Shown in pieces: positions 6,372-56,612 of a stretch of DNA of 64,000 bases; within the stretch, counting starts at the first letter, position 1; each line of letters opens with the position of its first letter. This DNA is from Haliotis cracherodii. Its lineage: Eukaryota. The notes under the pieces were generated by a model. It did no database searches. It had not been told where the DNA came from and was given only the letters and a program-made list of their open reading frames with translations. The DNA lies in the NCBI RefSeq assembly GCF_022045235.1, contig NW_027266285.1:4092001-4156000 (forward strand), written 5' to 3'. A program made the translations under genes and the position numbers.

Positions 6372-7110
6372 ATTGTAAATAAGGCGTGGATTCAAGTCGC
6401 GGATCAGTGATGACAAACGGACTTCTCATCACGATCTGCTGTTGATCTCTGAACGGAACCGTCGCCATCTTGCCAATTTAACCGATAATCTATCAAAGGT
6501 CAATTCAGCTTTTAATGGACGATGTTTGTTCGACAGCAGTTCCTGACCTTTGGTCCAGACTGCACCAAGCCAAGACCGCTATGTACGTTCCACTGACATT
6601 AGGAACACACTAGATTCGAGGGAGTTTGTCAAGATTGTCCAGGAACACCGTTATATTTGTTGCAACATCATGCAATTTATTCAGGCAGTTTTAGTTTCAA
6701 TAAAATCAATCAATAGGAAAACGGCAACCTGAAGATCATAACTTGCTTCGGTTTGCGAATTTGGTTGAAGCTTCAAACACTGCCTACCAGTTGAAAATGG
6801 CGCGCTCGCCTATTTCACGGTTACCTGGTGGCATCTTGGCCATGATTCCGTTAGATGCAGATTGCATGAATAGAGAATGTGAAGGGCTGTAGTCTAGATG
6901 ACTCCGAAGAGCATTCATCATAGATCATTTGTATCCAGTACCAACTGATTGATGCTGATAAATTTTAATTTACAAATCATGTTTATGTTTGAGATAAACT
7001 TAAAATTGTTAGAGGTCATCACGGCGCAAGAACATATCGATATACTGTGTTGGCCATGAGGATTGTCGGAAGCATATGCGGAAGAACTACACATACTTCT
7101 TATATTTGTG

Positions 7111-7272
7111 GGGGCGGTCGGGTAGCCTAGTGGTTAAAGCGTTAGCTCGTCACGCCGAAGACCCGGGTTCGATTCCCGACATGGGTACAATGTGTGAAGC
7201 CCATTTCTGGTGTCCCCCGCCGTGATATTGCTGGAATATTGCTAAAAGCGGCGTAAAACCGAACTCACTCAC
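7111..7272 (+). mobile_element. tRNA-derived SINE, family A, full length
   Basis: A box TAGCCTAGTGG, B box GGTTCGATTCC, tail GCTGGAATATTGCTAAAAGCGGCGTAAAAC plus (ACTC)n. Perfect 13-bp TSD TCTTATATTTGTG at 7098-7110 and 7273-7285. Confidence 0.95.
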
Positions 7273-8338
7273 TCTTATATTTGTGTGATGACCATCTCCT
7301 GACAAGAATGTTAAGTCTGTGAATAATTACCCCGAGAAGTTTTCATGTGATGTCACAATTAAAACGCGACGATACGGCGTAGTGTGAGTATATGATGACA
7401 GAGCAGGGGTCAAGGTTATTACCCTGAACTCAAACTAAAAAAAAGCAACGTGTTATTGTAATAAAAATGAAAAAAACTGTACATAAGCCGGGAAAAGAAA
7501 AGCATATGTCATCTTGATATTTTACACGCATCGGAGGTTTTACTGACTTCCTGTGTGAACATTGTACAAACGAAAGCAACTATTTACAGAACTACTCTGC
7601 CCCAGCTCCCCGTCTCAGTTCTGTGGCTAGTTACATTGCGTCATGGCGGTGTATTCTTGTTCCTATGTAATCAACGTTGATTTGAGAGTTTACGTTTCAC
7701 GTAGTTTATTCCGAATGAACTAATATGACTAAATTTCCAATAACGTTTTTATTTGCATAATAATAATTTGCAGCACATTGGCAGTGTTGTAATCCCAACC
7801 TTTTATTACTATCCTGTTGAATTAAATTGCCCAAAACATGCGGCACTGCCTCTTTGGCGTGTCGTGCGGAGATTGAAATTGACGTGTCAGTTTAAAGCGA
7901 ACTCATGACACTCATTTTAAGAGCTACGGTTCAAAATCCTCCAATTTAATCATTTTTGTTTGTTCAACTATTCAAGTGGTTGGCCTCTAGGCAGTGTGTT
8001 GTTATCGCGCTTATCTCCGCTGTTACTGACGGTGGCCAGGGCGACCTCGCAAGCAGAACCTACTGCCGCGCCTCCCGCGTTGATCATAGTACATATAGTA
8101 TTCTGTGAATGCTTCCTTCAAATCTGGTTATTGTTAGGAATATACTGAATGAATGGAGATAACTGATATGACTGAAATGCGTGAAAGAAGATTTCTTGGA
8201 ACGCCAGCCCGAAAAATACAAGCTGGAGGGGGCATTGTTACATTATCAAATCAAATCTTGTTACCTGTTACCATCATGGTGCAACTGTTATACACGTAAC
8301 TCACTAATGCTATATCAAAAGGGCGCCCACTATTGATA

Positions 8339-48061: not shown

Positions 48062-48170
48062 ACCCGTGAGGATCCGAGTTAGAAGAGGTCTTCAGCAACC
48101 CATGCTTGCCGTTATAAGGCGACTATGCTTGTCGTAAGAGGCGACTAACGGTATCGGGTGGTCAGGCTCC
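48062..48170 (+). mobile_element. 5' part of a family C SINE-like element
   Basis: ACCCGTGAGGATCCGAGTTAGAAGAGGTCTTCAGCAACCCATGCTTGCC..GTCGTAAGAGGCGACTAACGG..GGTCAGGCTC matches the sequence from 52408. Confidence 0.85.
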
Positions 48171-49803: not shown

Positions 49804-49852
<49 letters not shown>

Positions 49853-50082
49853 GCGAAGATCTGGGGTAGAATAGGTCTTGAGCAGCCCCTGCTTGCCGTA
49901 AAAGGCGACTAACGGGACCGAGTGGTCAGGCTCGCTGACTTGTTTGATGAATGTCATCGTATCCCAATAGCGTTGCTCGATACTCATGATGTGAATCACT
50001 GGGTTGTCTGGTCCAGACTCGATTTTGTACAGACCGCCGTCATGTAGCTGGAATATTGCTAAGTGCGGCGTTAAACAAACAA
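49804..50082 (+). mobile_element. Family C SINE-like element with a C34(AC)7 expansion at its 5' end
   Basis: GAAGATCTGGGGTAGAATAGGTCTT..GCCGTAAAAGGCGACTAACGGG..GCTGGAATATTGCTAAGTGCGGCGTTAAACAAAC. Confidence 0.88.
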
Positions 50083-50094
50083 GAATAATTCTTA

Positions 50095-50360: not shown

Positions 50361-50682
50361 ATCGTGAATATCGTATTGAAGAGATGAAGAAACGTAAATT
50401 TGACAAGATGAACTCAATATGATTTTGAAAGTCTATTTGCTGCTGTCTAACCTATCAGTCTAGCTCTGTTGTACCTAGCTATGGTGCGTCCTATTAAGAC
50501 CATCTAAACGATTATGTTATACCATCTAAACGAATATGTTATACCTACGTCCTGGTTTGACGATCTATGAGACATAACTGTTGAATGTACGTCCTATCGC
50601 GACGACATATCATGCCTTTCTGACCTCAAATCAAGTGAGTCCGATTTGCCTCGTTTTGCACGTGCTCGGACAGCAAGTATGC

Positions 50683-51575
50683 TAGCCATCAGTCACTACT
50701 GATATCTAGTCACCCATTAATGGTAGCCATCAGTCAATACTGATATCTAGTCACCCATTAATGGTAGCCATCAGTCAATACTGATATCTAGTCACCCATT
50801 AATGGTAGCCATCAGTCAATACTGATATCTAGTCACCCATTGAAGGTAGCCATCAGTCACTACTGATATCTAGTAACCCGTTAATGGTAGCCATCAGTCA
50901 ATACTGACAGCTAGTCACCCACTGAAGGTAGCCATCAGTCACTACTGATATCTAGTAACCCATTAATGGTAGCCATCAGTCAATACTGATATCTAGGCAC
51001 TCATTAATGGTAGCCATCAGTCAAACTGATATCTAGTCACCCATTAATGGTAGCCATCAGTCAATACCGACAGCTAGTCACTCATTAATGGTAGCCATCG
51101 GTCAATACTGACAGCTAGTCACCCATTGAAGGTAGCCATCAGTCAAAACTGACACCTAGTCACTCATAAATGGTAGCCATCAGTCAATACTGACAGCTAA
51201 TCACTCATTAATGGTAGCCATCAGTCAATACAGATATCTAGTCACTCATTGAAGGTAGCCATCAGTCAAAACTGACAGCTAGGCACCCATTGAAGGTAGC
51301 CATCAGTCAATACTGACAGCTAGTCACTCATTAATGGTAGCTATCAGTCAATACTGACAGCTAGTCACCCATTGAAGGTAGCCATCAGTTAATACTGACA
51401 GCTAGTCACCGATTGAAGGTAGCCATCAGTCAAAACTGATATCTAGTAACCCATGAAGGTAGCCATCAGTCAAAACTGACAGCTAGTCACCTATTGAAGG
51501 TAGCTATCAGTCAAAACTGATATCGTGTCACCCATTGAAGGTAGCCATCAGTCAAAACTGATAGCCAGTCACCTA
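50683..51575. repeat. 41-bp minisatellite, about 22 copies
   Basis: Unit GTAGCCATCAGTCAATACTGATATCTAGTCACCCATTAATG, with an internal mini-hairpin ATCAGT-CAAT-ACTGAT. Confidence 0.97.
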
Positions 51576-52407
51576 TTATTTTGATCATATTACACTGCAC
51601 AGATGAATGATTATCAGCTTAATGTAAATAATTCGAAAATTATATGTAACATTGTGGAAATGTTCAGTGTTAGAAAGTTCACCCATCAGCTGAAAACAGT
51701 TTGTACAGAGGTAACAGGTTCGTGTTTCTAGCATGTTTTCAGTTTTGTTCGTGATCTGGAAGGTTTGCTATCGTTATCATCCATCTATTTGCGTTAAGTC
51801 GCGAGCTAAGGCCGTGACTATATGATCGCAACATCTATATCATCGGCAACGAACGTCAACGACCAAGGGCTGGACGAATTGACCAATTCTCATGGATTGC
51901 ATGGTGTTTATAGGAGCTCCCTGGAGTGTGTCGGAGTTACAGTTCAAGAATATCGGTATTTTCACAGCACTTGTGGACCAAGTGGTAAGTACCTTTACTT
52001 GTGACATATTGGGGGATCTCTGACAATCTGGTGTCTCTCCAGGCAACTGTAGAGTAAGTCGGTGACATACATACACATGATGCTATGCCGCCTATATCGC
52101 ATTGATGGAGTTGTGGCACTCGGCTTGGGTCAAGTAGCTGATGACGTTGAGTCTGCAGCCGGACTAGCGTACTTCATTGCTCATTGGGTTAGAACATTAC
52201 AAGATACATATGCGGTTGAAATGAATTGTGTTTCCTGATACTGTTCATCACAGTTGTTATTTCCTGCAGTGGCACATAGTAGCCCTACACAGCACATTAC
52301 CAGATAATGGATTCATTTACAAAATGACCTCCTGCACATATACAAGGAATGTTGTTGCTAGGAATGACGTAAACTAGGTCTTTGCCTGGGAGATGACAGA
52401 AGCAATG

Positions 52408-52663
52408 GACCCGTGCAGATCCGGGTTAGAAAAGTTCTTCAGCAACTCATGCTTGCCGTAACAGGCGACTATGCTTGTCGTAAGAGGCGACCAACGGGAT
52501 CGGGTGGTCAGACTCGCTGACGTGGTTGATGCATGTCGTCGTAACTCAATTGCGGAGATCGATGCTCATGATGTCAATCACTGGATTGTCTGGTCCGGGC
52601 TCGATTATTTATGTCCTATGGCTGGAATATTGCTGAGTGCGACGTTAAACAACAAAGAAACAA
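52408..52663 (+). mobile_element. Family C SINE-like element, full length, no tRNA head
   Basis: Perfect 12-bp TSD ACAGAAGCAATG (52396-52407 and 52664-52675). The 3' tail GCTGGAATATTGCTGAGTGCGACGTTAAAC resembles families A and B. A-rich end. Confidence 0.92.
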
Positions 52664-52803
52664 ACAGAAGCAATGATTTTGGTATCGATTTTGGTGTTTG
52701 TTGTTGTTTCACAAACATGAAAACCTTTGTTGAATAGAGCAAACGTACTACAGTACAAATACACTTATGTAGTAAGTTACTATTTGTTTTGAAACGTCAG
52801 TAT

Positions 52804-55800
52804 GAGCAATGATGTATAACAAGACAACACCAAACAACACACGAAGGGTGAAGCAATAATGTATAACAAGACAACACCAAACAACACACGAAGGGTGGAG
52901 CACTGATGTATAACAAGACGACAACACCAAACAACACACGAAGGGTGGAGCACTGATGTATAACAAGACGACAACACCAAACAACACACGAAGGGTGGAG
53001 CAATGATCTATAACAAGACGACAACACCAAACAACACACAAAGGGTGGAGCAATGATGTATAACAAGACAGCACCAAACAACACACAAAGGGTGGAGCAA
53101 TGATGTATAACAAGACAACACCAAACAACACACAAAGGGTGGAGCAATGATGTATAACAAGACAACACCAAACACCACACTAAGGGTGGAGCAATTATGT
53201 ATAACAAGACGACAACACCAAACAACACACGAAGGTTGGAGCAATGATGTATAACAAGACGACAACACCAAACAACACACGAAGAGTGGAGCAATGATGT
53301 ATAACAAGACAACACCAAACAACACACGAAGGGTGGAGCAATGATGTATAACAAGGCGACAACACCAAACAACACACGAAGGGTGGAGCAATGATGTATA
53401 AAAGACAACACCAAACAACACACGACGAGTGGAGCAATGATGTATAACAAGACAACACCAAACAACACACGAAGGTTGGAGCAATGATGTATAACAAGAC
53501 GACAACACCAAACAAAACACGAAGGGTGGAGCAATGATGTATAACAAGACGACAACACAAAACAACACACGAAGGGTTTTGAGCAATGATGTATAACAAG
53601 GCGACAACACCAAACAACACACGAAGGGTGGAGCAATGATGTATAACAAGACAACACCAAACAACACACGAAGGGTGAAGCAATGATGTATAACAAGACA
53701 ACACCAAACAACACACGAAGGGTGGAGCAATGATGTATAACAAGACAACACCAAACAACATACGAAGGTTGGAGCAATGATGTATAACAAGACGACAACA
53801 CCAAACAACACACGACGGTTGGAGCAATGATGTATAACAAGACGACAACACCAAACAACACACGAAGGGTTGAGCAATGATGTATAACAAGACGACAACA
53901 CCAAACAACACTCGAAGGGTTTTGAGCAATGATGTATAACAAGACGACAACACAAAACAACACAATAAGGGTGGAACAATGATGTATAACAAGACGACAA
54001 CACCAAACAACACACGAAGGGTTTTGAGCAATGATGTATAACAAGACAACACCAAACAACACACGAAGGGTTTTGAGCAATGATGTATAACAAGACGACA
54101 ACACCAAACAACACACGAAGGTTGGAGCAATGATGTATAACAAGACGACAACACCAAACAAAACACGAAGGGTGGAGCAATGATGTATAACAAGACAACA
54201 CCAAACAACACACGAAGGTTGGAGCAATGATGTATAACAACAAGACGACAACACCAAACAACACACGAAGGGTGAAGCAATGGTGTATAACAAGACAACA
54301 CCAAACAACACACGACGAGTGGAGCAATGATGTATAACAAGGCGACAACACCAAACAACACACGAAGGGTGGAGCAATGATGTATAACAAGACGACAACA
54401 CCAAACAACACACGAAGGGTTTTGAGCAATGATGTATAACAAGACGACAACACCAAACAACACACGAAGGGTTTTGAGCAATGATGTATAACAAGACGAC
54501 AACACAAAACAACACAATAAGGGTGGAACAATGATGTATAACAAGACGACAACACCAAACAACACACGAAGGGTGGAGCAATGATGTATAACAAGACGAC
54601 AACACCAAACAACACACGAAGGGTTTTGAGCAATGATGTATAACAAGACGACAACACCAAACAACACACGAAGGGTTTTGAGCAATGATGTATAACAAGA
54701 CGACAACACCAAACAACACACGAAGGGTGGAGCAATGATGTATAACAAGGCGACAACACCAAACAACACACGAAGGGTGGAGCAATGATGTATAACAAGA
54801 CAGCACCAAACAACACACGAAGGTTGGAGCAATGATGTATAACAAGACGACAACACAAAACAACACACGAAGGGTGGAGCAATGATGTATAACAAGACGA
54901 CAACACCAAACAAAACACGAAGGGTGGAGCAATGATGTATAACAAGACAACACCAAACAACACACGACGAGTGGAGCAATGATGTATAACAAGGCGACAA
55001 CACCAAACAACACACGAAGGGTGGAGCAATGATGTATAAAAGACAACACCAAACAACACACGACGAGTGGAGCAATGATGTATAACAAGACAACACCAAA
55101 CAACACACGAAGGGTGGAGCAATGATGTATAACAAGACGACAACACCAAACAACACACGAAGGGTTTTGAGCAATGATGTATAACAAGACAACACCAAAC
55201 AACACACGAAGGGTTTTGAGCAATGATGTATAACAAGACGACAACACCAAACAACACACGAAGGTTGGAGCAATGATGTATAACAAGACGACAACACCAA
55301 ACAACACACGAAGGGTGGAGCAATGATGTATAACAAGACAACACCAAACAACACACGAAGGTTGGAGCAATGATGTATAACAACAAGACGACAACACCAA
55401 ACAACACACGAAGGGTGAAGCAATGGTGTATAACAAGACGACAACACCAAACAACACACGAAGGGTGGAGCAATTATGTATAACAAGACGACAACACCAA
55501 ACAACACACGAAGGGTGGAGCAATGATGTACAACAAGACGACAACACCAAACAACACACGAAGGGTTTTGAGCAATGATGTATAACAAGACGACAACACC
55601 AAACAACACACGAAGGGTGGAGCAATTATGTATAACAAGACGACAACACCAAACAACACACGAAGGGTTGAGCAATGATGTATAACAAGACGACAACACC
55701 AAACAACACACGAAGGGTTTTGAGCAATGATGTATAACAAGACGACAACACCAAACAACACACGAAGGGTGGAGCAATGATGTATAACAAGGCGACAACA

Positions 55801-56612
55801 CCAAACAACACACGAAGGGTGGAGCAATGATGTATAACAAGACAGCACCAAACAACACACGAAGGGTGGAGCAATGATGTATAACAAGACAGCACCAAAC
55901 AACACACGAAGGTTGGAGCAATGATGTATAACAAGACGACAACACCAAACAAAACACGAAGGGTGGAGCAATGATGTATAACAAGACGACAACACCAAAC
56001 AAAACACGAAGGGTGGAGCAATGATGTATAACAAGACAACACCAAACAACACACGAAGAGTGGAGCAATGATGTATAACAAGGCGACAACACCAAACAAC
56101 ACACGAAGGGTGGAGCAATGATGTATAACAAGACGACAACACCAAACAACACACGAAGGGTGGAGCAATGATGTATAACAAGACGACAACACCAAACAAC
56201 ACACGAAGGGTGGAGCAATGATGTATAACAAGACGACAACACCAAACAACACACGACGGTCGGAGCAATGATGTATAACAAGACGACAACACCAAACAAC
56301 ACACGAAGGGTTGAGCAATGATGTATAACAAGACGACAACACCAAACAACACAATAAGGGTGGAACAATGATGTATAACAAGACGACAACACCAAACAAC
56401 ACACGACGGTTGGAGCAATGATCTATAACAAGACGACAACACCAAACAATACACGAAGGTTGGAGCAATGATGTATAACAAGACAACACCAAACAACACA
56501 CGAAGGTTGGAGCAATGATGTATAACAAGACGACAACACCAAACAATACACGAAGGTTGGAGCAATGATGTATAACAAGACAACACCAAACAACACACGA
56601 AGGGTGGAGCAA
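52804..56612. repeat. 47/50/51-bp AC-rich satellite, about 77 copies
   Basis: Unit GAGCAATGATGTATAACAAGAC(GAC)AACACCAAACAACACACGAAGGGTG. The minus strand almost lacks stop codons, which produces spurious long ORFs in all three frames. Confidence 0.98.

Follow-up and report, generated by a model that had tools for sequence, protein, structure and literature searches.

A tandem-pseudoknot RNA head shared by abalone retroposons and viruses: a possible exonuclease block that sets element 5′ ends

The 5′ head of a tRNA-less SINE from the abalone Haliotis cracherodii is predicted from covariation to form a pair of H-type pseudoknots in tandem, of which the second encloses a hairpin, and the same head occurs in the 5′ untranslated regions of LINEs and behind the last open reading frame (ORF) of several RNA viruses. 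We give about even odds to the proposal that this LINE-derived head blocks 5′-to-3′ exonucleases and thereby sets the 5′ end of the element. The SINE lies in a 64,000-nt stretch of contig NW_027266285.1, which we call the window; unprefixed coordinates are window positions. The question at stake is how a precise 5′ end arises in SINEs that lack Pol III boxes and in LINEs with neither promoter nor ribozyme. The head of LP-SINEs has stood as a promoter proposal since 2016, and its sharing with RNA viruses makes the 5′-end question testable. This kind of SINE family is already known; for the structure of the head, its occurrence in viruses and its placement behind a ribozyme we found no published account.

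The full-length copy (256 nt, LP-SINE kind, forward strand) occupies positions 52408–52663 and is 86–89% identical to its best genomic relatives. Duplications of 12 bp at 52396–52407 and 52664–52675, both read from the sequence, set its 5′ end at 52408, in agreement with the original prediction. A 3′ tail motif on the forward strand (52621–52649), which recurs in full-length RNase-H LINEs, is followed by a CAAA-type terminal repeat (52650–52663). Two further forward-strand copies are present in the window. The second, at 48062–48169 (57 bits), begins at the same point as the 52408 copy, as had been noticed, and ends after about 108 nt, while the third, at 49849–50085 (53 bits), has a single core hairpin and has lost its 5′ bases beside a C-run/CA repeat. 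The reported absence of Pol III boxes holds in part: neither a B box nor a tRNA was found in the SINE, but one mismatched A-box-like match lies in the middle of its body. The window also contains a tRNA-headed SINE at 7109–7274 on the forward strand, with a 3′ tail of the same kind as the LINEs, a decayed SINE tail on the reverse strand (45061–44957), and flanking minisatellites with units of 50 bp (77 copies, 52804–56612) and 41 bp (22 copies, 50679–51578). The end of the SINE tail (52637–52652) shares about 10 letters with a stretch of the viral xrRNA coremin that PMC10520033 prints as conserved; this likeness may be chance.

The family comprises thousands of genomic copies. A DNA search of the 1.18-Gb genome with the SINE gave 7288 candidates, of which 40 were scored, and a 35-nt head pattern has 4917 exact matches. 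All 30 best genomic copies share a common 5′ start point; the flanks upstream are unrelated to one another, in keeping with a head that is not tRNA-derived. Target duplications were sought around 78 matches to the head, spread over 60 loci; many of these matches sit in tandem arrays or lack a tail. Of the 78, 25 have a duplication of at least 8 bp (8–14 bp). The gap between duplication and head in these 25 copies is 0 nt in 5, 1 nt in 12 and 2 nt in 5, so that 17 copies fall within 0–1 nt and 22 within 0–2 nt, with a gap of 4–6 nt in the other three; the view that the head marks the 5′ end of the element is thus borne out. The base preceding the head is G in nine of the twelve copies with one extra base. 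Unrelated SINE families in metagenomes also start at the head, as judged by eye. The head has, besides, been amplified into tandem satellite arrays with 40–105-nt units (L507, L511–L513, L579–L581 and L585–L587). Variable duplications, a short tandem-repeat end and a length close to 255 bp (here 256 nt) are features of LP-SINEs, and the SINE head is 80% identical over 60 nt to LINE heads of the same genome. By these descriptions and by a printed scallop head, the SINE is of the LP-SINE kind known from molluscs.

We aligned 20 diverged heads by sequence alone and scored covariation on that alignment. Stem S1 of pseudoknot 1 (52410–52425) pairs 52410–52413 with 52422–52425, with a U linker at 52414, and encloses the 5′ strand of stem S2; 84% of its cells are paired and two of its four pairs show changes on both sides. 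S2 spans 52415–52440 (7 bp, 52415–52421 with 52434–52440), is 91% paired and has compensatory changes at all seven pairs; a conserved AGAAUA-type linker (52428–52433) precedes its 3′ strand. Directly abutting S2, hairpin S3 (52441–52444 with 52450–52453), found by RNAalifold, is 91% paired with compensatory changes in three of four pairs. Slid-stem controls reach 33–58% paired against the 86–91% of the covarying stems. The S3 loop (52445–52449) forms the 5′ strand of pseudoknot 2 and pairs with bases 3′ of the core hairpin as stem S4, the register of which shifts among relatives and which is short in the 52408 SINE. When own and swapped partner strands were compared across 20 lineages, S1 reached z 3.8 and S4 z 3.3; a repeat on 29 clusters, drawn from the 55 best of 83 matches, gave 2.9 and 4.1. 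These swap tests take no account of relatedness. S4 has at least three pairs in 16 of the 20 relatives and is absent in four.

The core hairpin at 52455–52469, delimited by the alignment and by its tandem duplication, is near-invariant across the family. The original prediction left unmentioned a 22-nt tandem duplication of the hairpin in the 52408 copy, spanning 52449–52491; the second copy (52477–52491) is followed by a 3-nt linker and the 3′ strand of S4 at 52495–52498. The hairpin is 98% paired but invariant in the 20 relatives, and since it barely varies its pairing register is unproven and an alternative register may apply. Taken together, the helices predict a head in which two H-type pseudoknots follow one another, the second holding a hairpin, and the covarying fold contains no three-way junction.

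This fold retains some of the helices first proposed and replaces others. The GAAGATC/GGTCTTC stem is a family feature, covarying at all seven pairs, but the decayed 52408 copy reads GCAGATC/GTTCTTC and keeps five of the seven S2 pairs. AACCC and CTAA likewise fit the family consensus; the copy itself has AACTC and CCAA. ACGGG is indeed present at 52494–52498, but the CCCGT/ACGGG closing helix to which it was assigned is paired in 48% of cells (z −0.3 in 20 lineages, 0.0 in 29 clusters), and the GGGTT/AACCC pseudoknot fares no better (40–64% paired; z 0.2 and −0.3). The GGGGT/GCCCC exchange at 49853, taken as compensation, is atypical, with counts by eye among the 30 best copies of 20 for GGGGT, 5 for GGGTT and 0 for GCCCC. 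The broader idea of a conserved, pseudoknotted RNA that is not tRNA-derived is upheld by the tandem pseudoknots, whose stems S1, S2 and S3 covary across 20 relatives, and the helix order is, as suspected, not that of a canonical HDV ribozyme, the covarying helices being tandem and not nested.

The head measures about 75 nt, and the model built from the 20 relatives has 77 positions. Intact carriers score 41–78 bits and core-only chance matches at most 27.6 bits; the training rows score high by construction, and the held-out sequences are the LINE loci, L271 and L274. In some SINE families the linker before AGAAUA takes insertions of more than 30 nt. Folding of seven individual sequences told little (z −0.1 to −2.0). 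When the stretch from the window and 14 homologous loci were scanned with Rfam, no family matched the head. We found no published description of its structure in the open literature, as distinct from subscription journals, Repbase and Dfam.

The likely source of the head lies in LINEs. In locus L276 it stands 340 nt upstream of an ORF whose protein has 94 scored matches in the abalone genome, and around such ORF1 matches the head is found 500–700 nt upstream in 14 of 15 fetched loci and in 17 of 20 more. Full LINEs measure 5.7–6.1 kb and carry ORF1 followed by an ORF2 with APE-RT-RNase H; the homologous ORF1 of L276 contains a weak zinc knuckle. Judged from ORF1 and this domain layout, the closest donor found is a Nimb-like LINE of the I superfamily, in a comparison confined to RNase-H LINEs. 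The earlier derivation from an RTE 5′ untranslated region stands as to a LINE 5′ untranslated region, with an RNase-H element of the I superfamily, not RTE, as the closest donor found. The SINE tail motif is common to one LINE subfamily (L458, L465 and L468), and RNase-H LINEs are a candidate partner for LP-type SINEs. A search with the RNase H family matched mostly another LINE family, which lacks the SINE tail.

Young LINEs start 59 nt upstream of the head with a 58-nt minimal unit, a predicted HDV-like ribozyme with almost no P4 (L456:295–352 and relatives, G000:C80:9102700–9112600). All of its expected pairings are present, comprising a 7-bp P1 with a G-U at the cut site, a 7-bp P2, a 3-bp P3 and P1.1, together with L3 and the C in J4/2. 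Its Rfam score against RF02682 is 27.5–29 bits, below the cut-off of 44, and no compensatory changes were seen in it. In 11 of 13 full elements a 12–15-bp duplication abuts G1 of the unit, and 57 of 63 LINE loci begin with GGC. The unit is 98–100% identical among subfamilies whose ORF1 proteins are 52–69% identical, and the junction between ribozyme and head has 661 exact genome matches. Nimb and I are missing from the ribozyme-bearing clades listed in PMC5786205.

Among the 63 head-anchored young LINE loci, 62 keep the upstream ribozyme, one is cut inside it and none starts at the head. A search anchored 3′ of the head found the ribozyme in 26 of 30 loci, a start at the head in three and neither in one, and an older stem-variant pattern gave 12 matches, of which six are tandem arrays, five start at the head and one has the ribozyme. 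In total, eight older LINE-type copies without the ribozyme begin exactly at the head, and for one of the eight, L549, a duplication confirms this end. L549 is itself a 600-nt bipartite, non-autonomous element, composed of a LINE 5′ untranslated region and a 3′ tail, that starts at the head and has a 9-bp duplication. Reverse transcriptase stalling at the 3′ edge of the ribozyme could be a source of head-start LINE ends, but it is insufficient for the SINE families because these have no ribozyme. Downstream of the head, about 150 nt of the LINE 5′ untranslated region (L456:420–565, L276:2045–2190) contain more conserved stems, common to the abalone genome and a clam-associated contig and with some compensatory changes in six sequences; these stems are possibly a larger translation element. 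Young full-length LINE 5′ ends also form a dense cluster at G000:C2:20.9–21.75 Mb, with dozens inside 0.9 Mb.

The head is not confined to retroposons. A 17-nt core pattern matched 12 viral contigs, seven with the full upstream fold, and a further search added one; these eight contigs represent seven viruses, namely six RNA-virus lineages and one DNA virus. Three RNA-virus carriers have tombus-like polymerases, one is toti-like, one has an A21 capsid (two near-identical contigs) and one an S-domain capsid with an unassigned long ORF. All six RNA viruses have the element on the coding strand, 3′ of the last ORF and 5–197 nt past the stop, and two of the six lineages carry it in tandem; in five cases it is 17–109 nt from the contig end. 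The DNA virus (212 kb, with Bro-N, NAD ligase and MSV199 genes) has an intergenic element. Relaxed core patterns yielded no further carriers in viral contigs: the new loci score at most 27.6 bits, where 98 of the 104 loci numbered L307–L410 were scored and repeats of known contigs left out. The small-flank loci L255–L270 were scored by the descriptor script alone, whose values of 9–10 are also reached by chance matches. Contigs matched to one viral 3′ end in sequencing runs all stop short of the element. Metagenome contigs hold at least 122 stretches with the core, mostly in SINE families, for which we infer animal hosts. The prokaryote collection gave six matches, five with the fold (L271 and L273–L276), which are likely eukaryotic or host carry-over in bins; L276, in a bacterial genome record, is an animal-type element with a LINE ORF1.

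We infer the function of the head from its covariation, its positions, the start sites of its carriers and the common tail. Since it lies in sense, 3′ of the last ORF, in six RNA-virus lineages, a role at the RNA level is indicated. Under the exonuclease-block proposal, a copy would be transcribed by read-through from a host promoter, and after decapping or upstream cleavage Xrn1 or Xrn2 would trim the RNA to the base of S1. The protected RNA could then serve as template for an RNase-H LINE through recognition of the 3′ tail common to both elements. The fold would have a comparable task in RNA viruses, shielding a 3′-terminal subgenomic RNA. Xrn1 requires a 5′ monophosphate. Where LINEs have the upstream ribozyme, the folded 5′-OH end would stay untrimmed, which may be why their copies start at the ribozyme; HDV-like ribozyme ends have been argued to resist 5′-to-3′ decay (PMC11331408). 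Such a block explains the head-defined ends, the viral 3′ position and the tandem copies together. For class 3 xrRNAs, Xrn1 is described as stopping exactly at the P1 base (PMC12397905); a stop at the base of the first stem matches the start point of the SINE copies.

Several features count against an exonuclease block. Missing from the head are the class 3 T-loop and AGY network and the three-way junction of classes 1 and 2, and the long linker insertions are unusual for a tight ring. Pseudoknot 2 and the invariant hairpin are unneeded for a simple block, but match the helix order of the TSS, a viral translation enhancer. S4 is missing from some relatives, a single head-start LINE copy has a confirming duplication, and the extra G before the head could be the trace of a cap or start site.

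This likeness to the TSS suggests another role, that of a ribosome-binding, cap-independent translation enhancer serving uncapped viral RNA from the 3′ untranslated region and ribozyme-cut LINE RNA from the 5′ untranslated region, with the SINE docking on ribosomes and so capturing LINE protein. The helices of the head follow one another as in the TSS of turnip crinkle virus, with stacked H4a/psi3, H4b/psi2 and H5, and psi3 of that virus is formed with upstream bases (PMC5336357, as far as its description goes). The tombus-like polymerases of three carriers and the closeness of the element to contig ends agree with such a role, as does its place in young LINEs, 3′ of a ribozyme that leaves no cap, and 3′CITEs are described as able to work at 5′ ends (PMC5712577). 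But the likeness is drawn from helix order, the head is smaller than the TSS (an H5 equivalent of 15 nt and an overall length near 75 nt, compared with 100 nt), and 6–14 AUGs intervene between the LINE head and ORF1. An enhancer also gives no account of SINEs and ribozyme-less LINE copies starting exactly at S1. We regard it as the main rival, though rather unlikely; it is compatible with an exonuclease block and both could hold.

The two readings in which the head generates its own 5′ end seem quite improbable. That it is a self-cleaving ribozyme of a new class, cutting at its own 5′ edge, was the original prediction, and it would fit the precise ends and a 19-nt core as nearly invariant as in catalytic RNAs; ribozymes in untranslated regions are also reported for some toti- and tombus-like viruses (PMC13725137). 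However, the C proposed as catalytic is base-paired, forming the G-C closing pair of the invariant hairpin in 20 of 20 relatives in the RNAalifold register, and the base after it varies among LINE subfamilies. Young LINEs keep a separate HDV-like ribozyme, cleavage in a viral 3′ untranslated region would sever the genome end, and no Rfam ribozyme family matches the head; the head is probably not a self-cutting ribozyme. Twister, pistol and hatchet do not fit it either, by Rfam and by their general descriptions. We hold an internal DNA promoter, with transcription starting at the head and the RNA fold secondary (Matetovici 2016), to be just as doubtful. It agrees with the 5′-terminal place of the head in LINEs and SINEs, has a cited precedent in trypanosome Pr77 (both PMC4758252, in its accessible text) and could account for the extra G in single-base cases, yet explains neither RNA viruses without a DNA stage nor the compensatory pairing. 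Both self-cleavage and a self-starting promoter should strip the upstream ribozyme, and it is the retention of that ribozyme with an intact head that disfavours them.

Returning to the exonuclease block, we propose, with slightly less confidence than we give the block itself, that the head represents a new structural class of xrRNA, the first in cellular retrotransposons, and a cassette passed around among LINEs, SINEs, RNA viruses and one DNA virus. Promoter-less and ribozyme-less retroposons would gain from it a third route to a 5′ end, by way of a host decay enzyme that trims read-through transcripts, and some LINEs would later have added an HDV ribozyme in front. If so, xrRNAs (or TSS-type enhancers) would extend from viruses to host mobile elements. 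The distribution of the head shows a non-coding RNA module moving between retroposons and unrelated viruses. The analysis also names a candidate partner LINE and a predicted HDV-like ribozyme in an I-superfamily LINE.

Among known systems, the HDV-like ribozymes of R2, RTE and ingi/L1Tc differ from the head, which has no P3/L3, no P1.1 and no unpaired J4/2 C; the HDV-like ribozyme of young abalone LINEs stands apart from the head as a 58-nt unit preceding it, and is lacking from the SINE. LP-SINEs, described from abalone, oysters and periwinkle under the names Hdi_LP, Hmi_LP, Oco/Oed_LP, Sgl_LP and Lsa_2, share with the 52408 SINE a length of about 255 bp, the lack of a tRNA, variable duplications, a terminal tandem repeat and a head of some 70 bp that stems from a LINE (PMC4758252). 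The 5′ ends of Nimb-17_LMi, I-3_DR and RTE-9_CPB agree with their first 70 bp. A scallop head shown in supplementary Fig. S2 has the same core in its ‘Nimb-17 homology’ block and, by eye, fits S2, S3 and S4 with other letters (PMC4758252). The accessible text of that study proposes the head as a promoter, gives no structure, mentions no virus and leaves the partner LINE unidentified (PMC4758252).

Class 3 xrRNAs of Tombusviridae and Solemoviridae, and coremin, resemble the head as compact pseudoknots at the 5′ edge of an RNA, located in viral 3′ untranslated regions, whose boundary coincides with the first-stem base (PMC12397905, PMC10520033). The head shares with class 3 an apical-loop pseudoknot with the 3′ side and a 5′ end at the first-stem base, but lacks the L2B T-loop, J1/2 bulge and AGY motif described for class 3 (PMC12397905), and its S1 loop, made of one U and the 7-nt S2 strand and followed by the AGAAUA linker, is unlike class 3 as described. 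It further differs from class 3 and coremin in having two tandem pseudoknots with an invariant hairpin, and in its occurrence in cellular retroposons; by its predicted fold the head is outside xrRNA classes 1–3 and coremin. The TSS of turnip crinkle virus and umbraviruses combines two stacked pseudoknots with a third hairpin, ordered as in the head, and is 3′-proximal in uncapped viruses, like the head in its viral carriers (PMC5336357, PMC9780821). H4a/psi3 would correspond to S2/S1, H4b/psi2 to S3/S4 and H5 to the core hairpin. The exact pairing partner of psi2 enters this mapping as general background. Compared with the TSS, the head has a much shorter third hairpin (15 nt) in place of the long H5 arm and the T shape of about 100 nt, a strong primary-sequence core, and a second setting at the 5′ ends of animal retroposons.
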